36,784 nt of DNA from Lentisphaeria bacterium. Lineage in GTDB: Bacteria > Verrucomicrobiota > Lentisphaeria > JABSQK01 > JAWLHB01. The translations under genes were made by a program, and so were the position numbers. The stretch is taken from NCBI GenBank assembly GCA_041690595.1, contig JAWLHB010000012.1, positions 1-36,784 of the forward strand, in the 5' to 3' direction. Under the pieces are notes generated by a model. That model had not been told where the DNA came from. It ran no database searches and was given only the letters and a program-made list of their open reading frames with translations. Positions 1 to 36,784 of the stretch are shown here, piece after piece. Position 1 is the stretch's first letter; every line of letters starts with the position of its first letter.

Positions 1-10
1 TCATCCTCAT
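1..10 (-). CDS. 5' end of a gene leaving the window to the left (partial, product unknown)
   Basis: The minus strand reads AGGAG-ATC-ATG AGG ATG A, a Shine-Dalgarno followed by ATG at 10. Only three codons are visible. Confidence 0.35.
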
Positions 11-336
11 GATCTCCTGTAGGGGGTTCAAGTCACAGGAGATACTGTGCGCACGAGCAAGCGAATATTCACCATGGGGTATTTTTGACGCTTACCGCGC
101 ATGAGCCGATCGCCGCCGGGGAGCCGTATTGCCCGCAGCTTCCCCATCTCTGCCAAAGGAACTACATAAGGACAGATAAGCCGGGGGGCGTTATCTTGGC
201 TGCATGAGCTTTCAGCAGCCCCAGTCAAGATTTGCGGTGGGCGCACCTCCGGCGGAAGTATCCGAGGGGCGAGGATGGATCTGCGCGGCGGCGGGGGAGA
301 CAGACGGCGGGGAAGGGAACGGCTTCGGCGGGCGAA

Positions 337-362
337 GGAATCGAGGGAATCGAGGGAATCGA
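337..362. repeat. 9-bp tandem repeat GGAATCGAG, about 3 copies
   Basis: GGAATCGAG GGAATCGAG GGAATCGA is read directly at 337-362. Confidence 0.85.
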
Positions 363-381
363 ATTTTTGGGAGGACGAGCG

Positions 382-603
382 TTGGATCTGCTTGCGAAGA
401 TTGGGGAGGAGGCGGGCGGGAGGGTCATCCTGGCGCGGGCGCGGTCGTTGACCGCAACGAAGGGGTTCTCGGCTGAAGGACCGATGCCTCATGAGCTGAT
501 CTGGAGGCGAGATTGTATGAAGAACATGAAGATTGTGGCTGGGCCGCTCGGTGACCGGCTCCAGTTGGCGGCCAAGTCGTGGCTGCACGCCAACGGGTAT
601 TGA
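382..603 (+). CDS. small hypothetical protein (~73 aa, TTG start)
   Basis: 3' part of ORF 232..603. GGAGG at 370-374 lies 7 nt before TTG 382, and a perfect hairpin follows the stop. No family recognised. Confidence 0.35.
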   Translation: MDLLAKIGEEAGGRVILARARSLTATKGFSAEGPMPHELIWRRDCMKNMKIVAGPLGDRLQLAAKSWLHANGY

Positions 604-609
604 GTTCAA

Positions 610-628
610 CGCAATCAGGATGATTGCG
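610..628. terminator. perfect hairpin after the small ORF (terminator-like, no U-tract)
   Basis: CGCAATCA-gga-TGATTGCG, an 8-bp perfect stem starting 7 nt after the TGA at 603. Confidence 0.3.
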
Positions 629-708
629 GCCACCTCGGCAAGCTTGGATGCTTGACGTGGGGTGCAGAGAGAGAGCTTTCGGAACCAGGGATGGCTGCGG
701 GGAGCTTA

Positions 709-1796
709 CAATGGCAGGGCCGTTGGGGACAACGGCGGGAAGAGGACGGATGGGGTGGCGAGGGGATATGAGGGGAGCCAGGCGTTGGGGAGTGGCAACG
801 TCCAACGCCGGTGCCACTCAGGCGAGTGGCGTGCCCAGGATCAGGCCGCCGCTCAGAGAGCGGCTCAGTCGCGGTTCGGAGAGCGGCTCCAGTAGGGATA
901 GCAGAGGGTTGGCGGGGTGGTGTGCGGGGAGCCAGGCGTCGGGGAGTGGCAACGTCCAACGCCGGGGCCACTCAGGCGAGTGGCGTGCCCAGGATCGGGT
1001 CGCGGTTCTGAGAACCGCTCGCAGGTTGTTCAGGGGGCGGGGTGGTGTGAGGAGAGCCAGGCATTGGGGAGTGGCAACGTCCAACGCCGGTGCCACTCAG
1101 GCGAGTGGCGTGCCCAGGATCAGGTCGCCGCTCGGAGAGCGGCTCCAGTAGGGATAGCAGAGGGGTGACGAGGCGATATGAGGGGAGCCAGGCATTGGGG
1201 AGTGGCAACGTCCAACGCCGGTGCCACTCAGGCGAGTGGCGTGCCCAGGATCAGGTCGCCGCTCGGAGAGCGACTCAGTCGCGGTTCGGAGAACCGCTCC
1301 CACATTGCCGGGCCTGTGGAGGCTGAGGCCAGTGGAAGTGAAGTCGCGTGGAGGGGGAAGGCGATGCGTAAGTCGCGGTTCGGAGAACCTCTCCCACGTT
1401 GTCGAGCCTGTGGAGGCTGAGGCCAGTGGAAGTGAAGTCGCGTGGAGGGGGAAGGATGGCAATGGCAGGGCCGTTGGGGACAACGGCGGGAACGGGAAGG
1501 ATGGGGTGACGAGGCGATATGAGGGGAGCCAGGCATTGGGGAGTGGCAACGTCCAACGCCGGAGCCACTCAGGCGAGTGGCGTGCCCAGGATCAGGTCGC
1601 CGCTCGGAGAGCGGCTCACTAATAAGTCCCGTGGAATTGAGCGCACGCGGGGAGGGGGCGATGGTCATAGCAGGGCCGTTGGAAACGGCCCTAGTCGCCG
1701 TTCGGAGAACGCCTCCCACTTTGAGGTCAGCGCAGGGGCGAGACGAGGTAGCCCCGAGGGCAACCCTGGGCTATGGGACGCAGCCCCGTTGGGGCA
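709..1796. repeat. mosaic array of structured repeats (REP/BIME-like)
   Basis: Five 97-bp units at 770-866, 924-1020, 1049-1145, 1180-1276 and 1521-1617. An 85-bp duplication at 1277-1361/1371-1455. Reused linker modules: CAATGGCAGGGCCGTTGGGGACAACGGCGGGAA at 709-741 and 1460-1492; CAGTAGGGATAGCAGAGGG at 890-908 and 1146-1164; GGGGTGRCGAGGSGATAT before units 1, 4 and 5. Confidence 0.95.
1278..1303 (-). repeat. REP-like GTGG + hairpin element (copies at 1372-1397, 1694-1719, 2731-2756; variants end every 97-bp unit)
   Basis: The minus strand reads GTGGGAGCGGTTCTCCGAACCGCGAC: a GTGG tetranucleotide followed by a GC-rich hairpin, the architecture of GTAG/GTGG-family REPs. Confidence 0.7.
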
Positions 1797-1827
1797 AGTT
1801 CTTTTCGAAAAAAGTTTTATTTACCGC

Positions 1828-1856
1828 TTTACTTCCTGGTTATACCGGCATACATT
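1828..1856 (+). promoter_or_regulatory. putative sigma70-type promoter of the terminase small subunit gene
   Basis: TTTACT (1828-1833), a 17-bp spacer, then TACATT (1851-1856), in a locally AT-rich patch with an A/T tract upstream. Purine-rich RBS AAGGAGGAGAGG precedes ATG 1908. Confidence 0.55.
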
Positions 1857-1907
1857 GCGGATAGTGAAAGCTGTACTTTTGGAAGTTACTGAAGGAGGAG
1901 AGGTGCG

Positions 1908-2942
1908 ATGCGGGAGTTGACGCAGAAGCAGGTGGAATTTGCGGCGGCGTACATGGAGCATGGGTGCGCGGTGAAGGCGGCGCTGGAGGTAGGATACTCG
2001 GAGTCGTACGCGAAGGGACAGGCGTACAAGATGCTGAATGACCCGCGGGTGGTGGCGGTGGTGCAGGGGGTGAATGCCGACACCCGGGTGAGCCGGGATA
2101 TGTACGCGGGGGTGCTGCTGGAGATGCTGGTGACGACGCCGGCGGATCTGCAGAGGGACGATGGGACGGTCGACCTGTCGTCGCATGCGATCAAGAAGGT
2201 GAAGTTCATCACGAAGCCGGACGGTACGAAGGCGACGGAGGTGGAGTTGTACGACAAGCAGCGTGCGGGTCGAGACCTGAAGGAGGTGATGGGTTGGCGC
2301 AACAACCCGATAGCGCGTGAGATGATGACGTTTCCGGCGAATTGCGAAGTGACGGCGGAAGTGAAGAAGAACGGGGATGTGATCTATACGAAGATCGACC
2401 CGATGTTCCGGGAGGGGCTGTGCCGGCGCGCGGATGGGACGATCGGGAATTGGCGGAAAGAGTTGGGGATTTATGAGGAGGAGGGAGAGGAAGTCGGAAA
2501 CTCCAGGAAATTGGAAATCGGGCAGAACAGAAATGTGTCGACCGATGTGTCGACCGATGTGTCGACCGATGTGTCGACCGATGTGTCGACCGATGTGTCG
2601 ACCGATGTGTCGACCGATATGGGGCAACGCCAGCGGATGGCGCGCGAGCTGATGGCAGAGGTGACGAATGGGGAGGAGGGTGCGGTGCAGACCGATATGA
2701 GGACCGATACGCCTTCGGCATCAATCCAGGGTCGCCGCTCGGAGAGCGACTCACACCCTGTTGAGGTGGTAACTGGGCGGAAGGTATCGCGGCAGCGGCG
2801 GCGGGCATTGGCGCGGCAGGCGGCAAAGGCGGCGGAGCGGGGGATGCAGTCTGCGAACGAGGGGAAAGCCAAGGCCGCCCGGGGGAGCGCCTCACCCACT
2901 GCTGAAAGCTGCCAGGATCGCCGCTCGGAGAGCACCTTGTAG
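1908..2942 (+). CDS. phage terminase small subunit-like protein with repetitive C-terminal extension
   Basis: The N-terminus LTQKQVEFAAAYMEHGCAVKAALEVGYSESYAKGQAYKMLNDPRV matches the Terminase_2 (TerS) HTH pattern LTxKQxxFxxxY...AxxAAxxxGYS...A...xxLxxPxV. The later segment IKKVK...EVELYDKQRAxxxL is also TerS-like. Strong RBS. Confidence 0.85.
   Translation: MRELTQKQVEFAAAYMEHGCAVKAALEVGYSESYAKGQAYKMLNDPRVVAVVQGVNADTRVSRDMYAGVLLEMLVTTPADLQRDDGTVDLSSHAIKKVKFITKPDGTKATEVELYDKQRAGRDLKEVMGWRNNPIAREMMTFPANCEVTAEVKKNGDVIYTKIDPMFREGLCRRADGTIGNWRKELGIYEEEGEEVGNSRKLEIGQNRNVSTDVSTDVSTDVSTDVSTDVSTDVSTDMGQRQRMARELMAEVTNGEEGAVQTDMRTDTPSASIQGRRSESDSHPVEVVTGRKVSRQRRRALARQAAKAAERGMQSANEGKAKAARGSASPTAESCQDRRSESTL
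2533..2616. repeat. intragenic VNTR: 7 perfect copies of ATGTGTCGACCG, encoding (VSTD)x7
   Basis: Counted directly. Each unit contains the palindrome GTCGAC. Confidence 0.97.
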
Positions 2943-3023
2943 CTGTCTGGAGAAGAGAGGTGGACTTGGCGTGATCGGGTCTTACAGTAGGAGTATCACG
3001 GGTGCAGAATAACAGCATAGCAT

Positions 3024-6000
3024 GTGAGGGGCAAGATGCGAGCGATGTGGGCATTGAAGTTTATGGTCTTTATCGTTCTGGTGCTGGGTGTCGATGCGGT
3101 TGCGGAGCCGCGGCCGGCAGTCCTTTTTGTGGACGCGAAGCCGGAGCAGGTGCGGAGCTGGGAGGACTGGCTGGAGGCGGGATTCGAGGTCGATGCAAAA
3201 GCGCTGGCCGAGGTCGGGACGCTGGAATCGCTGAAGCCCTACAATGTGGTAATTGTCAACTTTCTGCCCTCCGTGGATGCCCAACTGGCGATACAGCCGG
3301 AACAAGCCAGGTTCGAGGTGGCGCTGGGGGCGTTTCTGCGTGAGGGCGGTGGGGCACTGGTCTTCTCTGGCGGAAGCGGCTTCGAAAACATCCTGCCCGC
3401 CTTGCAGCATCTGCTGAAGGCGTACGGCGCGACGGTGCCGGAAGAGCAAGTGACCGACGCGGAACATAGCTTCGGCAAGGTAGGTACCTTCAGGGGGTGC
3501 TACACGACCCAGATTGCCGCGGCACCGATGACGCAGGGCATCTCCCGCCTCGGCTTCGTGGCGGATGCCACCCGTGCCGACTGCATCGAGACGACCATGC
3601 CACTGGTCATTCTGGAGAAGGATGCCTGGCAGGTCGTCGTGCGCGGCGAAAGCTCCGCCTACAGCGCCGAAGGTATTTCGCCCGGCTCATCGTCGAAGCT
3701 GAAAGATACGCCGGCCACCTATGCGACGTCACCGGTCATGGCGGCATGGCGCACCGTGGGCGCGGGCAGACTGCTCGCCTACCCTCACAACCCTGCCTTC
3801 ACGACGGCGTCGCCCGAGGTCTTCGCGAAGGTCCTGTGGAACGCGGCCGATCAGTCGGAGCCGGGCGCGATGCAGAACCGCACTTTCATCATGCAGGCAG
3901 CGCGATGGGCGGCGGAGCCGAGCATGACGGCAGGGAATTTTGGCGGCTTTTTGACGGATCGGGAGCTGCGTCCGGATCAACGGGCAATCCTTGGCAAGAG
4001 GGAAACAGCGATCGACTGGTCGCAGGTGGGCAGCGGTGATGCCCTTGCGCCCGCCATGCACAAGCTTCCGGGGCTGATCGGGGCACAGAGCAACTTCAGC
4101 GGCGGTGAGCGGACGGTTGCACAGCTCTGCGAGGCCGCGCGGGCAGCGGGCCTCTCCTACCTGGGCTTCACCGAGAACCTGGAGCAAATGACCGCGGTAA
4201 GCTGGGCCGCGCTGATCGCGGAGTGCGAGGCAAACAGCAGCGAGGACTTCCTGGCGATTCCGGGGCTTCTGGCGCTTGATCTGGTGGGCAACTCCTGGTT
4301 TGCCCTGGGCTGGGCTCCCTTCCCTCAGCCGCAGTCCGTCAGCGAAGATCTGAGTCGGATCGAAAACACCTACATGTTCTGGTCGAAGCTCTTCCAGGGT
4401 CGCATGGCCGGCTTTGTCCGGACGGGGCTGAATCCCAACCCGTGGTATGAGATGAAGCACAGCTCGACCTTTGCGGTCTCCTCCTGGGAAGGCGGCGAGG
4501 AAGTCGACAACGCCCTCGATGCGTTCCTGCAGAGCTGCGCGGCCATGGAGAACTATATACCCTTGCGCTTTACGCTCTTGCGCAATGAATCGGAACTGGC
4601 AGCTGCGGCTGCCGGTCCGCTCAACATCTATACCGGTCCCAATGTGCAGGATCTGCGGCTCTACGCGGAAGGTCGCGAGCCGCACAAGCGCAACCTCTTC
4701 TGGGCGAGCCCCCACAACTGGTACCTCGGCAACGGGCCGACGCTGGCCTACCACGGCGGCCACAACCTCGGCAACCTGGCGACGGACGAAGAGCTGGACA
4801 ACCGCTATCGCTATGGCTTCAAGCTGGAGGGCATGCAGCCCGGCGATCGCGTCCTTCTCTACGACGGCACACGCATCTTTCGCGAATGGCGCGCCGAGGA
4901 AGGCACCTTCGTCGGCGAGCACGACTGGCCCCACGAGCAGGTGCGTCAGTTCGTCATCCGCGTGATGCGAGGCGAAGAGACCGTGCTGCTTTCGGCCCCC
5001 CTGCAGCTGCACTACGGGCGACGCTTCATGCAGTGCGGCGACCGGCAGAACACCCTTCCCTACAACTATCAGCCGGACCGCCACGGCAACACCTACGTGA
5101 GCGGCATTCCCATCGGCGCGCATTATCGCTCCTGGCCGCCACAGACGCTGGTCTACGGGAACTTCAAGATCTGGCTGACGGGGGCCATCGGGATCGAGTA
5201 TCAGCCGCCCATGTACATGAGCTTCATGACGAGCCCCGAGATCCCGTTCGAGCATGAGCGCCAGGAAGGATCGCGCAACTTGGCGTCGTACCAGTATCCA
5301 CGCCTCTCCTGCCCGGGAATGCTGATCGTGGATCAGGTGACGGATCGCGTCTATCCCGATGGCGGGCGCAACACCGGAGACTGTACGCCTCCGAAGCTGA
5401 CCGAGCCGCTGCAGCTCTTCAACCTGCACCAGCGCCGCTATGCTATCTATGGCGCACTGGACCAGGTCAACGCGCAATACGTGGAATCACGAGTCGTGGC
5501 TCTGCGGGATGTGAATCTCGCGGGAAGCAGCCCGCAGGTGCTCGTGTCGCGGATCAGCTTCCCGATCGATCCGGAGGCGGGGCAGATGGCGGAGCTTACC
5601 GTGGGCGATCGGCTGGAGCGCCTGCCGCTGGATGCGCTGCCCCGGGTCAATTACAACGATCTTCTCGCCGCTGGTGACTATGTGGGGGTCTATCCACATG
5701 GTCTTGCGGGTGGCGGCGCGCAGTACAAGGTCTCCGGAGATCTGGTGAGCCGCCTGCAGACCAGCAAGACGGACAACCTTACCTCGGCGTGGTACCTGCG
5801 GGTTCCCGCACAGTGGAGTAAGGACCAGGAGTTCAGCTACAGCCTCCTCTACAGCACCGGCGGCTCGAAACCCCATCGCCCAGCCTCGGACTATGTGAAG
5901 ACGGCTGCCTTTCTCGGGTTGCGCGACAAGGCCTTTCCAGCTATCGCTGCCGTCAAAGGTGGCGAGCTGCTGGCAGAACCGGTGATCGCGACGATCGTCA

Positions 6001-6416
6001 CCACGCCCGAAGCGACGGTAGAGCTGACCACCCGCCACGATCCGGAGGCGCCCGTGGGGCTGCCCATCCGCCTCAGGGGTCTGCAGCCGAACTGGCAGGT
6101 TGCCTACCAGCTCAATGGCTCGACGATCTGGCGCTATTGCGGCGAATATGAAGGCGACTTCTATCTCAATCTCTATACGCACCACGGCGCCCACCAGCTT
6201 ACGGCTGGTCACCCCGTGACCGCCAGCGATGACCGCCTGCGCATCGCCCTGGATGACGCAACTGGCGGACAGACCAGCTTCGAACTCTACAACCCGACCG
6301 CGGAAGCCATCACCGCCTCGCTGCGTCCCCACGCCCCCTTCCTGACAGGCGAGGAAAAGAGCGTCACCGTGGCACCCTACACTTCCGCGACCGTACAGTG
6401 GAGCAAGGATCAATGA
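3024..6416 (+). CDS. large secreted hypothetical protein with a GATase-like N-terminal domain and a degenerate PHP-like domain
   Basis: 1130-aa ORF with a signal-peptide-like start (MRAMWALKFMVFIVLVLGVDAVAE). The segments LKPYNVVIV...FLREGGGALVF...VGAGRLL resemble class I GATase-like folds. GLIGAQSNFSGG...AARAAGLSYLGFTE resembles a PHP N-terminal motif without its histidines. Confidence 0.75.
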   Translation: MRGKMRAMWALKFMVFIVLVLGVDAVAEPRPAVLFVDAKPEQVRSWEDWLEAGFEVDAKALAEVGTLESLKPYNVVIVNFLPSVDAQLAIQPEQARFEVALGAFLREGGGALVFSGGSGFENILPALQHLLKAYGATVPEEQVTDAEHSFGKVGTFRGCYTTQIAAAPMTQGISRLGFVADATRADCIETTMPLVILEKDAWQVVVRGESSAYSAEGISPGSSSKLKDTPATYATSPVMAAWRTVGAGRLLAYPHNPAFTTASPEVFAKVLWNAADQSEPGAMQNRTFIMQAARWAAEPSMTAGNFGGFLTDRELRPDQRAILGKRETAIDWSQVGSGDALAPAMHKLPGLIGAQSNFSGGERTVAQLCEAARAAGLSYLGFTENLEQMTAVSWAALIAECEANSSEDFLAIPGLLALDLVGNSWFALGWAPFPQPQSVSEDLSRIENTYMFWSKLFQGRMAGFVRTGLNPNPWYEMKHSSTFAVSSWEGGEEVDNALDAFLQSCAAMENYIPLRFTLLRNESELAAAAAGPLNIYTGPNVQDLRLYAEGREPHKRNLFWASPHNWYLGNGPTLAYHGGHNLGNLATDEELDNRYRYGFKLEGMQPGDRVLLYDGTRIFREWRAEEGTFVGEHDWPHEQVRQFVIRVMRGEETVLLSAPLQLHYGRRFMQCGDRQNTLPYNYQPDRHGNTYVSGIPIGAHYRSWPPQTLVYGNFKIWLTGAIGIEYQPPMYMSFMTSPEIPFEHERQEGSRNLASYQYPRLSCPGMLIVDQVTDRVYPDGGRNTGDCTPPKLTEPLQLFNLHQRRYAIYGALDQVNAQYVESRVVALRDVNLAGSSPQVLVSRISFPIDPEAGQMAELTVGDRLERLPLDALPRVNYNDLLAAGDYVGVYPHGLAGGGAQYKVSGDLVSRLQTSKTDNLTSAWYLRVPAQWSKDQEFSYSLLYSTGGSKPHRPASDYVKTAAFLGLRDKAFPAIAAVKGGELLAEPVIATIVTTPEATVELTTRHDPEAPVGLPIRLRGLQPNWQVAYQLNGSTIWRYCGEYEGDFYLNLYTHHGAHQLTAGHPVTASDDRLRIALDDATGGQTSFELYNPTAEAITASLRPHAPFLTGEEKSVTVAPYTSATVQWSKDQ

Positions 6417-7032: not shown

Positions 7033-8346
7033 ATGTCTGCCTTGGCGCAAGCCGCTCACATACGCGAAGAGAACAGCCGTCCCGATGCCATGCGGGAGCA
7101 GCTGCGGCAGCATTTCCACAGCGTTCGCGGTTTCACGGAAGAGCTGTGCGAACCGTTAGAGATCGAGGATTTCGTGGTGCAGTCCATGCCGGACGTGAGT
7201 CCGACGAAGTGGCACATCGCGCACACCACGTGGTTCTTCGAGGCGGTGGTGCTGGCGCGGGCCAGCCTTGGGCATCACCCCTTCGACATGCAGTACGCGT
7301 ACCTCTTCAACTCCTACTACGTCAGTCTTGGCGAGCGTCACTGCCGCCCGAAGCGTGGCCTTCTGTCGCGTCCGACGGTGGCCGAGATCTATCGCTACCG
7401 GAGCTATGTGGATGATGCAATGGAACAACTGCTGGATGTGGTCAACAACGACGAACTGATGCATCTGGAACCGCTGATCGAAATCGGCCTGCACCACGAG
7501 CAGCAGCATCAGGAATTGCTGCTGATGGACATCAAGCATGTCCTTGCGCAGAATCCATTGGCGCCAGCCTACGTCGAAGCGACGAAGGAGTGGAAGGCGC
7601 GGGAGGAGACCGGGCTGGAGTGGGTGGATCTGGCCGAAGGGGTTCAGGAGATCGGTCATGGCGGCGGCGGCTTTGCCTACGATAACGAAGCACCCCGCCA
7701 CCGAGTCTACCTCCACCCCGCGCGCCTGGCCGGCCGGCCGGTGACGGTGAAGGAGTATCTTGCCTTCATGGAAGATGGCGGCTATGACCGCGCCGAGTTC
7801 TGGCTTTCGGCCGGGTGGAATTGGTTGAATGAAGAAGGGATCCAGGCGCCGCTCTACTGGTTCCGCACCAATGGAGAATGGCGGATCTTCACCTTGACCG
7901 GCATGCGATCGCTTCATCCCGACGAGCCGGTCTGTCACGTCAGCTATTACGAGGCGGATGCCTATGCGCGATGGGCCGGCGCCCGGCTGCCGACGGAAGC
8001 AGAGTGGGAGGTGGCGGCGAGCCCACTTACCATTCGCGGCAACTTTGTGGAAGATGGCAACTATCACCCAATCGCCATGCCGGCGGCAGCATCGGACCAA
8101 CCACTGCAGCAGATGTACGGGGATGTCTGGGAATGGACCAGCAGCCACTATTCGCCCTACCCCGGCTTCAAGCCGCTGCCCGGTCCCTTGGGCGAGTACA
8201 ACGGCAAATTCATGGCCAATCAGTTTGTCCTGCGAGGCGGCAGCTGCGCCACCTCGATCAGCCACATTCGTACAACCTATCGCAACTTCTTCCCAGCCGA
8301 CGCCCGATGGCCCTTCACCGGCATCCGGCTGGCTCAGGACAGTTGA
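7033..8346 (+). CDS. egtB: ergothioneine biosynthesis sulfoxide synthase EgtB
   Basis: DinB-like N-domain QSMPDVSPTKWHIAHTTWFFE, LFNSYY, RGLLSRP and Fe-binding HHEQQHQEL. FGE-sulfatase C-domain with RLPTEAEWE, GDVWEWT, EYNGKFM, LRGGS and YRNFF. Confidence 0.96.
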   Translation: MSALAQAAHIREENSRPDAMREQLRQHFHSVRGFTEELCEPLEIEDFVVQSMPDVSPTKWHIAHTTWFFEAVVLARASLGHHPFDMQYAYLFNSYYVSLGERHCRPKRGLLSRPTVAEIYRYRSYVDDAMEQLLDVVNNDELMHLEPLIEIGLHHEQQHQELLLMDIKHVLAQNPLAPAYVEATKEWKAREETGLEWVDLAEGVQEIGHGGGGFAYDNEAPRHRVYLHPARLAGRPVTVKEYLAFMEDGGYDRAEFWLSAGWNWLNEEGIQAPLYWFRTNGEWRIFTLTGMRSLHPDEPVCHVSYYEADAYARWAGARLPTEAEWEVAASPLTIRGNFVEDGNYHPIAMPAAASDQPLQQMYGDVWEWTSSHYSPYPGFKPLPGPLGEYNGKFMANQFVLRGGSCATSISHIRTTYRNFFPADARWPFTGIRLAQDS

Positions 8347-36285: not shown

Positions 36286-36784
36286 GCGCGGTTCCACCTC
36301 AGCAGGCGCTTGATGGTTTCCGGTGCATCCTGCCCCCAACTGCGAATGTTGGCGACCAGCTCCTCGATGATGCCGAGCAGGAAGGCGAGGAGGAGCAGCC
36401 ATGGCCAGAGCGGCTGCCCGTGAGTCATGCCGGCCATGTGGTCGCGATGTCGAGCCCAGTCGCGAGACTGGAAGGGGCTGGCAGGCTGGAGCGATGCCGC
36501 CAGTTCTTCTTCACCGATTTCGGCCAATTGCGATTCCTGCGTCGGCACATTCACCGCCAGATGACGACTCTGTGGCGGATCGCTGTCGAGGTCGACGCGA
36601 TAGAGTCCGGGCAGGCGCAGCCCCCCCTGCACAAAAGGCTGGTCGGCGGTGGCACGATCGAGGACGATGCGCCGCCGCTTGCCGCCAGGTTCGAGAAGGG
36701 TACCGGTCAACCGCTTTTCGTCGCCCGGCCAATGCAGTTCGGCCAGTTGGCCGACCTCCAGGCGGGATGTCCGCTGGCGGTTGC
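36282..36784 (-). CDS. C-terminal part of a BatA/VWA-type membrane protein (5' end outside the window)
   Basis: The frame is open to the window edge. PGLYRV...LAVNV...ESQL...PLWPWLLLLAFLLGIIE is the typical tail of BatA-domain proteins. Confidence 0.75.
   Translation of the reverse strand, partial: NRQRTSRLEVGQLAELHWPGDEKRLTGTLLEPGGKRRRIVLDRATADQPFVQGGLRLPGLYRVDLDSDPPQSRHLAVNVPTQESQLAEIGEEELAASLQPASPFQSRDWARHRDHMAGMTHGQPLWPWLLLLAFLLGIIEELVANIRSWGQDAPETIKRLLRWNRA

Follow-up and report, generated by a model that had tools for sequence, protein, structure and literature searches.

A small-terminase-like gene family set among co-oriented REP repeats in a Lentisphaeria genome

A small-terminase-like gene behind a repeat array

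The window, a 36,784-nt stretch of a Lentisphaeria bacterium contig, carries near its left end an intact forward-strand open reading frame (ORF) of 344 aa (1908–2942), preceded by a repeat array (540–1800, +) and a unique AT-rich leader (1801–1907, +) and followed by a gene that lies outside the feature (3024–6416, +). The window starts at a contig end, and its first 95 nt (1–95, − strand), the tip of a multicopy IS-like element, mark an assembly break: blastn found 16 copies at 99–100% identity, all less than 150 nt from contig ends, and a ribosome-binding site and ATG in the tip read leftwards off the contig.

The ORF product matched Pfam Terminase_2 (E = 2e-11; score 45.1 bits, cut-off 26.1), with residues 4–131 aligned to profile positions 1–131 of 141, and PHROG phrog_51 ‘terminase small subunit’ (E = 6.8e-13). 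Pfam, PHROG, PDB-profile and AF2/Foldseek comparisons delimited a conserved TerS-like N-terminal part (aa 1–200; 1908–2507, +), comprising an HTH DNA-binding domain, a predicted oligomerization core and a beta-rich extension. A profile of seven paralogues matched SF6/SPP1 DNA-binding-domain structures in the PDB (4zc3, E = 1.4e-4; 2cmp, 1.8e-4; 3zqp, 6.2e-4). Foldseek placed small-terminase structures on top for the AF2 model of the window protein, itself of low confidence (pLDDT 60.5): 3zqq matched with prob 0.99, 2cmp and 4zc3 gave a target TM of 0.83, and the DNA-binding domain superposed at an rmsd of 1.0–2.2 Å. The order of long helix, beta-hairpin and helix in the core region also fits, at that pLDDT of 60.5 and a whole-chain TM to 3zqq of 0.25–0.38, and the nearest ESM Atlas clusters were 97–99% Terminase_2 (score 0.95–0.96). 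The profile and structure comparisons proposed in the earlier note agreed with its claim of an apparently intact TerS-like gene. Small-terminase-like, divergent and intact, the gene has no packaging partner; its protein would most likely bind DNA as an oligomer.

The absence of a large terminase, portal or capsid gene, pointed out earlier from the nearby genes, extends across the 34 kb to the right: no terL, portal or capsid family was found among the 19 window ORFs, and the same scan found no phage genes to the right of the ORF. Satellite genes (integrase, regulator, replication, capsid-remodelling) were likewise absent from these 19 ORFs and from 100 ORFs flanking paralogues, and PADLOC defence-system models gave no match. 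The neighbouring gene at 3024–6416 encodes 1130 aa with a hydrophobic N-terminus, for which no Pfam, PADLOC or phage family matched. As a candidate tRNA/att site, ARAGORN made a sole call, ‘tRNA-Asp(atc)’, of 96 nt and inside an ORF at 7723–7818, which we judged spurious.

The 107-nt leader has no second copy in the genome and a GC content of 41%, against 62% for the window, and is the putative promoter region. It holds AGGAGG at 1893–1898, 9 nt before the ATG, in agreement with the ribosome-binding site described earlier. The sigma70-like promoter that had also been claimed for the gene was not confirmed: a scan of 600–3200 returned 0 sites, and the best candidate found by eye, TTTACT-17-TACATT, agreed with the consensus at 8 of 12 positions only. 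Just before the leader, the last module of the array is a terminator-like hairpin, GCCCCGTTGGGGC, followed by a T-run (1783–1805, +); the hairpin is also present in the DNA fold of 1660–1800 (z −2.9).

Beyond the conserved part, the ORF continues into a low-complexity tail (2508–2942, +), apparently without coding constraint. It contains a 12-nt repeat (ATGTGTCGACCG; VSTD in frame) in 7.2 copies (2533–2618, +; TRF, 100% matches), and at the same position the paralogue on contig C36 has about 37 copies, counted by eye, of a related 12-mer, GACCGAGGATTC. The hairpin module said to recur inside the gene is indeed there, as two degenerate copies of the repeat hairpin REP-C described below that both fold poorly: one at 2731–2752 (+; regex, 1 substitution; weak fold, z −0.6) and one at 2917–2938 (+; regex, 3 substitutions; z +0.4), which ends 4 nt before the stop. 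Beyond its N-terminal part, each TerS-like ORF is read-through into REP DNA.

The array is built of two genome-wide REP families

TRF, repeat searches and copy number defined the array as a co-oriented tandem mosaic of REP-A, REP-C and accessory hairpin modules. TRF reported a 131-nt unit in 3.2 copies (score 597) and a 94-nt unit in 1.9 copies (score 330), and the repeat search a 159-nt family with 5 copies at 709–1618; the per-base genomic copy number is 20–200 over 720–1800 and falls to 0 at 1801. Five exact REP-A cores, GCCACTCAGGCGAGTGGCGTGCCCAGG, lie at 813–839, 967–993, 1092–1118, 1223–1249 and 1564–1590 (all +), and nine REP-C hairpins, GTCGCSGYTCGGAGARCSSCTC, with a 7-position stem and GGA loop, start at 845, 868, 999, 1124, 1255, 1278, 1372, 1596 and 1694 (within 845–1715, +). 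The array that the earlier note saw directly upstream of the gene is therefore real, with different limits: the 709–1740 given there lies within about 540–1800.

Searching the genome with 709–1740 by blastn gave 1181 HSPs at 145 loci on 56 of the 99 contigs, and the repeats are present at 39 of 198 contig ends. Genome-wide we counted 238 REP-A cores (copies with up to 3 substitutions) and 236 REP-C cores in 152 clusters, and orientation is uniform in 95 of the 105 clusters with multiple copies. Same-family neighbours up to 400 nt apart are co-oriented in 242 cases and inverted in 17, and REP orientation tracks local GC skew in 99 of 141 clusters. Within the REP-C stem two pairs covary, and a C.C mismatch is usual at one position: one covarying pair is G-C in 124 copies and C-G in 84 and the other T-A in 157 and C-G in 56, with 93% paired at one (51% when shuffled) and 96% at another (79%). 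Neither consensus (REP-C, agTCGC...CTCccac; REP-A, Gg.GCCACTC...GGCGTGCCCAGG) has a GTAG or CGTC tag at the hairpin foot, a tag that, according to Di Nocera et al. (2013, PMC3733652), most but not all REPs carry. Away from TerS-like genes the REPs show no reading-frame preference. As for an RNA partner, Rfam over 1–3200 at E up to 1 returned one chance-level match, WT1-AS_5 (E = 0.9).

Each REP family is found, to the exclusion of the other, around a REP-associated tyrosine (Y1/HUH) transposase (RAYT) gene of its own on another contig. Of four Y1_Tnp genes in the genome, C26:500–1108 has 8 REP-A and 0 REP-C within 1.6 kb and C11:187697–188167 has 9 REP-C and 0 REP-A within the same distance; the other two are flanked by neither. 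Against NCBIfam NF047646 ‘REP-associated tyrosine transposase’ the C26 protein scored 88.4 bits, passing the cut-off of 80, and the C11 protein, RAYT-like, 68.5 bits, below it; the translations show HUH-like and Y..NP motifs. There is no TerS-like gene near either locus. The array is thus a cluster of ordinary REP repeats and neither specific to the window gene nor its private partner: the repeats belong to two genome-wide families, each around its own transposase gene.

The gene is one of 15 dispersed copies

Of the genome's 16 Terminase_2 matches, C2:168355 stands apart as a canonical prophage terS, not close to the TerS-like family: it matched the profile at E = 0.006 and over positions 52–129 only, and adjoins a Terminase_6N terL and an S24 repressor. 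This is the only terS–terL pair, and it lies at C2:166.9–168.8 kb. The remaining 15 are seven full-length and eight truncated, apparently decaying, TerS-like copies, so that what had been proposed as a single domesticated module is one of 15 dispersed copies. The window copy is the most divergent, with about 30% identity to the others, and lacks the promoter that other copies have in common. The 14 others sit amid unrelated host genes, and no phage structural genes were found in 100 ORFs beside them, apart from the C2 prophage.

Homology between the paralogues on C7 and C29 begins at the upstream REP-C, running from −156 to beyond +1093, and that between C6 and C25 runs from −242 to +747; across paralogue pairs the boundaries fall at −156, −242, −88, −9 and −13. 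Because they differ between pairs, transposition as a unit is not shown, and no defined element ends, common termini or target duplications were found among the copies; a mobile element with fixed ends was set aside, as the paralogue comparison yielded no such ends. Synonymous divergence between paralogues is 0.12–0.46, and the spread is therefore not recent.

Substitution patterns indicate that the N-terminal ~200–225 residues are under purifying selection and that the tails lack coding constraint. dN/dS was 0.09–0.53 over 215 codons in 15 pairs of six full-length paralogues. By codon position, the N-domains of C7 and C29 differ by 4:3:28 substitutions and their tails by 6:10:1, and truncated copies had flat distributions. 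The window copy was compared with related metagenome contigs (X1–X4; one study, short, 2–6× depth), on 12 differences. In the N-part three of four are synonymous; in the tail one of eight is, the other seven being non-synonymous, and the tail also has a frameshifting 4-nt deletion at 2805–2809. The joints of X1–X4 within the array were left uninterpreted, as they could derive from other REP loci.

TerS-like copies are associated and co-oriented with REPs

Eleven of the 14 other TerS-like copies lie less than 1 kb from a repeat locus, compared with 3.7% of random positions (binomial 5e-14); the three without an array-type repeat within 1 kb are those on C49, C14 and C8. Conversely, only about a dozen of the 145 repeat loci adjoin a TerS-like gene. 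The earlier note had pictured, as grounds for abandoning its proposal, repeats scattered through the genome with no link to terS homologues; only half of that picture holds, because the 152 clusters are scattered genome-wide and the link to the TerS-like copies is real and non-random.

All 76 REP cores within 2.5 kb of 13 TerS-like loci are co-oriented with the gene. Ordinary genes flanking REPs show no such rule, with 43 co-oriented and 50 opposed upstream and 70 and 44 downstream. We considered a shared replication-strand bias as the cause and rejected it as too weak, since, with 99 of 141 clusters and 9 of 15 TerS-like genes following local GC skew, the expected co-orientation is ~0.54 per locus. 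The 13 loci may owe their co-orientation to a single inherited state and need not count as independent events. Same-strand REP hairpins stand on both sides of the window copy, C7 and C2:114410; in the 2.5 kb upstream of four of the six full-length copies of the main family there is neither a REP-A nor a REP-C core, and the flanks of the paralogues differ in their module sets.

REP-A spacings beside TerS-like genes are multiples of 3 in 14 of 14 cases, compared with 40 of 116 elsewhere (Fisher 1.5e-6); the 14 spacings come from just 5 loci, and at C8 another gene intervenes. These spacings reflect a canonical 78-nt unit, and given this unit, the 5 loci and the tail of the C7/C29 pair without a coding signature (6:10:1), we make no claim of selection on the tails at the protein level.

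Close relatives were found only within the genome

A homologue search with aa 1–200 found 0 among 250 candidate proteins, and 40 related genomes held no close relative and one weak match (E = 2.3e-4). Searching contigs gave three distant loci at 26–40% identity. Among 1.84 billion representative proteins, the six matches at E ≤ 1.2e-19 corresponded to six of the genome's own copies; apart from these there was no close relative, the next match being P0007 (E = 8e-16), a protein of 304 aa encoded on a metagenome contig of 1.4 kb. The exact window protein sequence is absent from the cluster collection. None of 70 phage records covered ≥80% of the first 200 residues, the maximum being 41%. The literature searched on REP, RAYT or REPIN together with terminase held no report of a protein-coding gene family embedded in REP arrays, and the TerS-like copy number and REP setting are new and unusual.

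Discussion

Our best joint explanation, which we consider probable, is that the array is a REP cluster and that the gene belongs to an orphan TerS-like family, captured from a phage and multiplied with its REP flanks. A phage terS would have been captured in the lineage and retained as an expressed DNA-binding protein; a strong putative promoter common to six paralogues (TTGACT/TATGGT) is in line with expression. The gene would then have multiplied around the chromosome along with REP flanks, either by a RAYT acting on co-oriented REP hairpins on both sides, as for DNA between IS200/IS605-type end hairpins, or by recombination between REP arrays, and later REP turnover may have worn away 3′ ends to give the truncated copies. 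The bolder proposal that a small terminase was captured by the REP/RAYT system, with its proteins serving as dedicated DNA-binding partners of REP arrays or with REP hairpins and RAYT having mobilized the gene into a 15-member family, strikes us as rather unlikely.

SPP1-type TerS binds repeated sites flanking its own gene. By analogy, the TerS-derived proteins might be sequence- or structure-specific binders of REP arrays, architectural or accessory and regulatory for REP/RAYT, kept beside their binding sites much as phage TerS binds boxes in and around its own gene. The proximity of 11 of 14 copies to repeats, the perfect polarity (76/76, far from the ~0.54 per locus that strand bias predicts), the purifying selection on the N-domain and the same arrangement at the window copy, despite its ~30% identity and lack of the common promoter, all argue for this; we nevertheless regard it as unlikely, with a TerS-like gene near only about a dozen of 145 repeat loci and at neither RAYT locus, differing module sets in the flanks, and eight copies decaying. 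Equally unlikely, in our view, is a passive association, in which REPs would pile up at dispensable neutral genes or beside existing REPs and the family would have spread by ordinary duplication unrelated to REPs. It would suit the erosion of 3′ ends by REPs into tails without a coding signature, the pseudogene-like truncated copies, the missing element ends and, as Bertels & Rainey (2011, PMC3116915) describe, the insertion of REPINs into or beside existing REPINs, but it leaves the polarity unaccounted for, as REPs obey no such rule towards other genes, and offers no mobilizing mechanism for 15 unlinked sites amid unrelated host genes.

Two readings tie the gene more closely to phage biology. 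In one, it is a stand-alone TerS for packaging initiation or interference, a PICI/SaPI-like relic or anti-phage decoy, with the repeats as pac-like sites or an RNA partner. An orphan terS with intact HTH and putative core would fit, the resident prophage terS–terL pair could be a helper or target, and many diverging paralogues would suit an arms race; we find this very doubtful all the same, as the repeats belong to RAYT-linked REP families in 152 clusters, no Rfam family and no PADLOC model matched beyond chance level, and the family stands apart from the resident prophage terS. The satellite or packaging-site idea of the earlier note is without support, and no integrase, replication, regulator or capsid-remodelling gene lies by any copy. 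In the other, the gene would be a non-functional remnant at the edge of a decayed prophage to the left, where the contig breaks off in an IS-like repeat 1.9 kb from the gene and the DNA beyond lies outside it. This is highly improbable because no family copy has phage neighbours (0 of 14 others); besides, the ORF is intact with a ribosome-binding site, its N-part differences are 3 synonymous to 1 non-synonymous, and a 1.2-kb REP array and terminator-like hairpin separate it from the left side.

The small terminase G1P of SPP1/SF6 type (Terminase_2; 3ZQQ, 3ZQP, 2CMP, 4ZC3) has the same N-terminal HTH domain, and the Terminase_2 match here reaches through the profile's oligomerization region (positions 1–131 of 141). 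The window gene differs in having no adjoining terL and no place in a packaging/head module, in its 15 chromosomal copies amid host genes, and in an extra ~70-aa beta-rich segment followed by an apparently unconstrained repeat-derived tail. Phage satellites (SaPI/PICI) are single islands of ~10–15 kb with integrase, regulators, replication genes and an att site; their stand-alone terS likewise has no terL following, whereas the family here is multicopy, REP-flanked and without satellite genes by any copy. PATE-type non-autonomous derivatives of IS200/IS605 carry same-strand hairpins recognized in trans by a Y1/HUH transposase, and these passenger derivatives resemble the present loci in same-strand hairpin bracketing, fixed polarity and multiplying deletion derivatives. 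Unlike them, the loci here yielded no conserved end on either side and no cleavage site or target sequence that could be defined, and long, heterogeneous REP arrays flank them where those elements have single subterminal hairpins.

The repeats closely resemble the REP/RAYT systems described in PMC3116915 and PMC3733652. Shared features are imperfect palindromes, short and present by the hundred, which form several families per genome, each gathered around a Y1 transposase gene of its own (a ‘REPtron’). Two families also alternate at a fixed spacing within tandem arrays of uniform orientation, the arrays tend to follow one side or strand of the chromosome (here, 99/141 following GC skew), and REPs occasionally lie inside genes. 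Ordered tandem GI–GIII REP arrays, for instance, are described for Pseudomonas fluorescens SBW25 by Bertels & Rainey (2011, PMC3116915). The present genome departs from these systems in the dominance of direct tandem arrays over inverted REPIN doublets (242 versus 17), in consensuses without the GTAG/CGTC tag, and in a protein-coding gene family embedded in the arrays.

REPs and RAYTs are usually viewed as a closed pair that multiplies nothing but short non-coding hairpins, and what they do for the cell has long been an open question. In this genome, a phage-derived family of DNA-binding genes sits inside REP arrays with strict polarity at 15 sites. As a practical warning for draft genomes, terS matches that adjoin repeat arrays are not necessarily signs of prophages, satellites or pac sites. 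Movement of the gene by REP/RAYT activity would mean that REPs can spread genes, the first such case beyond bare repeats; binding of the protein to the arrays would give REP arrays a protein partner and show a packaging protein turned to a new role.

An intact TerS-like gene among host genes

The genome comprises 8.1 Mb in 99 contigs, and the window spans contig C12 from its start to base 36,784. The intact TerS-like gene described there by the earlier note was confirmed: the ORF at 1908–2942 (+ strand, 344 aa) is uninterrupted and matched Pfam Terminase_2 (E 2e-11; residues 4–131, profile positions 1–131 of 141) and the PHROG family phrog_51, ‘terminase small subunit’ (E 6.8e-13). The closest ESM Atlas clusters of its protein were 97–99% Terminase_2, and a profile of seven full-length paralogues matched SF6/SPP1 small terminase DNA-binding-domain structures (E 1.4e-4 to 6.2e-4). 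The AlphaFold/Foldseek comparison that the note had proposed, with the seven-sequence paralogue alignment as input, yielded a low-confidence model (pLDDT 60.5) whose top matches were SF6-type small terminase (3zqq, prob 0.99; 2cmp/4zc3, target TM 0.83).

An AGGAGG lies 9 nt upstream of the ATG, in line with the reported ribosome-binding site; the sigma70-like promoter reported with it was not found in a scan of 600–3200. The 107-nt leader (1801–1907) is single-copy in the genome, has 41% GC and is preceded by a terminator-like hairpin with a T-run at 1783–1805. To the right lie a gene for a 1130-aa protein of no known family and then a cytidine-deaminase-type gene, an EgtB-like gene (7033–8346; FGE-sulfatase and DinB_2), a kinase, glycoside hydrolases and other host genes; none of the 19 ORFs scanned on this side belonged to a phage family, in agreement with the claim that large-terminase, portal, capsid and integrase genes are lacking nearby. 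A 96-nt ‘tRNA-Asp’ with anticodon atc, called by ARAGORN at 7723–7818, is almost certainly a false positive and sits within the EgtB-like ORF.

On the left, the contig end is reached after 1.9 kb and the neighbourhood is unreadable because the contig ends in the tip of a multicopy element (1–95), with 99–100% identical copies at 16 contig ends. This element carries a ribosome-binding site and ATG directed leftwards, and a longer copy (C11:56–150) starts MRMSTETKRSYWAELIEAWQA; it is probably an active IS and the cause of the assembly break.

The upstream array is a REP cluster

The repeat array upstream of the gene is real, with limits (~540 to 1800) wider than first described. When its 709–1740 segment was compared with the genome by blastn, 1181 HSPs were obtained at 145 loci on 56 of the 99 contigs, and array-type repeats lay ≤700 nt from the contig end at 39 of 198 ends. 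Two REP hairpin families dominate the array. REP-A has a core of a perfect 7-bp palindrome with a 4-nt loop and a conserved 3' tail (238 genome copies at ≤3 substitutions), and REP-C has a 7-position stem with a GGA loop (236 genome copies). In a comparison of 231 distinct REP-C copies, one pair of the stem was G-C in 124 and C-G in 84 (93% paired versus 51% when shuffled) and a second was T-A in 157 and C-G in 56 (96% versus 79%), and a C.C mismatch was usual at one position; REP-C is therefore a structurally conserved imperfect palindrome.

REP-A and REP-C cores group into 152 clusters, with uniform orientation in 95 of 105 multi-copy clusters; REP-A cores are preferentially spaced at 78/79 nt and REP-C cores at 93 nt. 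Where no TerS-like gene is near, the repeats favour no reading frame and so behave as non-coding DNA. Of 141 clusters with uniform orientation, 99 were oriented in agreement with local GC skew, which suggests strand-biased insertion or retention; strand bias has been reported for Y1-transposase elements. In four sediment metagenome runs the last hairpin module of the array (1760–1796; GCCCCGTTGGGGC plus flanks) reached 25–66x summed depth, with many contigs diverging on both sides; it is a short element of very high abundance in the sediment community.

A search for Y1 transposases revealed four genes. One (C26:500–1108) has eight REP-A and no REP-C within 1.6 kb, another (C11:187697–188167) has nine REP-C and no REP-A, and the remaining two have neither alongside. 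At 88.4 bits the C26 protein exceeds the cut-off of 80 for the NCBIfam equivalog ‘REP-associated tyrosine transposase’ (RAYT), while the sole match of the C11 protein is the same model below cut-off (68.5 bits). The array and these two Y1 genes constitute a REP/RAYT arrangement. As described in PMC3116915, Pseudomonas fluorescens SBW25 has co-oriented, ordered tandem arrays of two interleaved REP families, each clustered at its own RAYT, and the window array is likewise a co-oriented tandem mosaic of two families. It differs from textbook REPs in that their GTAG/CGTC tag, described in PMC3733652, is not visible in REP-A or REP-C, and in that direct same-family neighbours greatly exceed inverted ones (242 to 17). 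By itself, the array is an ordinary REP/RAYT feature of a little-studied lineage. DUF1559/N-methyl proteins among the scanned ORFs are in keeping with a PVC-group bacterium.

A 15-copy family with strict polarity

Sixteen Terminase_2 matches were found in the genome, and 15 of them form a single family. Besides the window copy, this comprises six full-length paralogues (on C7, C29, C49, C6, C25 and C36), with 80–95% mutual identity and 28–32% identity to the window copy, and eight truncated copies retaining the promoter and first 47–65 codons. A strong, conserved promoter, which in C7 reads TTGACT, ~16 nt and TATGGT, is common to these 14 copies, as is a GGGAGG site; the window copy has neither. 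Their neighbours are unrelated host genes, including glycoside hydrolases, a type II secretion ATPase, a chemotaxis hybrid protein and restriction-modification genes, and among 100 ORFs around copies no phage functions were found except in a prophage region on C2. There the 16th match (C2:168355), a weak one, is followed immediately by a Terminase_6N large terminase; an S24 repressor and an OLD-type nuclease gene are close by, and the nearest array repeat is 21 kb away. This match belongs to an ordinary prophage terS–terL pair, outside the family.

Several of these loci have further features. The prophage-like region (C2:159000–178000), with its terS–terL pair, S24/HTH repressor and OLD-family AAA+TOPRIM nuclease gene, contains three copies of the ATTAACCAC repeat. 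On C8 (38962–41125), immediately after a truncated copy (108 aa), come a 147-aa ORF and a 466-aa reverse transcriptase (RVT_1, E 2.6e-35), with five REP-A copies beyond them. C36 has an AAA_21 ATPase together with a DUF4276 gene (slice L026:12875–14571) and, adjoining the TerS-like copy, a RadC-like gene; this group may be a small defence island. The window and C36 paralogues, ~30% identical, both carry 12-nt microsatellites sharing TCGACCGA 3' of the conserved domain (2533–2618, seven copies, VSTD; C36:42745–43150, ~37 copies, STED/STEH, by eye).

The suspected association of repeats and gene held in one direction only: 11 of the 14 other copies have an array-type repeat locus within ≤1 kb, compared with 3.7% of random 400-nt segments (binomial 5e-14), but of the 145 repeat loci only about a dozen have a TerS-like gene next to them, so the repeats can do without the gene in cis. 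All 76 REP-A and REP-C cores lying ≤2.5 kb from a copy (13 of 15 loci; the other two have none within this distance) were co-oriented with the gene. A third repeat family, with core ATTAACCACAAAGAACGCA (99 genome copies at ≤3 substitutions), is found close to 10 of the 14 main-family copies. Of its 15 occurrences there, 14 are upstream and all 15 are co-oriented; on C7 these repeats bracket the unit on both sides (C7:58590–58608 and 56613–56631). REP clusters follow no comparable polarity rule towards ordinary flanking genes (upstream gene, 43 co-oriented and 50 opposed; downstream gene, 70 and 44). We rejected shared strand bias as the cause of the polarity: TerS-like genes agree with local GC skew in 9 of 15 cases, and such a bias would give co-orientation of only ~0.54 per locus, or 3e-4 for 13 loci, a figure that presumes independence and so would not apply strictly to loci derived from one ancestral unit.

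Constraint ends with the N-terminal domain

Fifteen pairwise comparisons of the six full-length paralogues over 215 codons gave dN/dS of 0.09–0.53 (dS 0.12–0.46), evidence of purifying selection on the N-terminal part. Between C7 and C29, substitutions at codon positions 1:2:3 were 4:3:28 in the N-domain and 6:10:1, without constraint, in the following 330 nt, which consist of hairpin-rich repeat modules. The family ORFs owe their length of 310–553 codons solely to stop-poor REP DNA downstream of the real domain. The truncated copies have flat distributions (for example, 5:5:8 and 6:10:13) and, from these, look like decaying relics.

Four sediment metagenome runs, all from one study, yielded short contigs of low depth that cover parts of the gene. 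Compared with these, the window copy showed three synonymous and one non-synonymous differences in codons 1–200 and one synonymous and seven non-synonymous differences plus a 4-nt deletion in codons 287–343, small numbers in both cases. The hairpin module reported inside this gene is present as two REP-C copies, but both are degenerate, with folding no stronger than that of shuffled sequence. The gene product is a TerS-like DNA-binding protein of ~200 constrained residues with no packaging partner.

Relatives, origin and possible role

The family is lineage-specific, with next to nothing found beyond this genome. One of 40 related genomes gave a match, a weak one; a word search for outside relatives found none; and species-representative genomes held distant loci only. 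Among 1.84 billion representative proteins, the six matches at E 1.2e-19 or better corresponded to six of the genome’s own copies, and the next, P0007 (E 8e-16), a 304-aa JGI/IMG metagenome protein, was the only outside relative above background. P0007, on a 1.4-kb contig, has a TerS-like N-domain and an acidic, internally repeated tail.

The earlier observation was largely correct, while the packaging or satellite module with private binding repeats built on it is unsupported, the array being a cluster of genome-wide REP families. The unusual element is the 15-copy orphan TerS-like family, embedded in REP arrays with strict polarity, and our literature search found no report of such a family.

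A phage terS was probably captured in this lineage and multiplied together with the REP DNA on either side of it. In the closest pairs homology extends past the gene into its flanks: between C7 and C29 from −156, precisely at the upstream REP-C, to past +1093, and between C6 and C25 from −242 to +747. Truncated forms with an identical junction recur several times, so derivatives were also copied. Same-strand hairpins flanking a segment are the geometry used by IS200/IS605-type Y1 transposases, which makes RAYT-mediated mobilisation of REP-bracketed DNA a plausible route of spread; recombination between REP arrays would be an alternative. A discrete transposon fits the copies less well, as no common ends or target duplications were found, homology limits vary among paralogue pairs, and four of the six main-family full-length copies lack REP-A/REP-C upstream. 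No defence-system matches were obtained. The TerS-like protein might be an array-binding protein, a factor acting on phage packaging, or simply a tolerated passenger.
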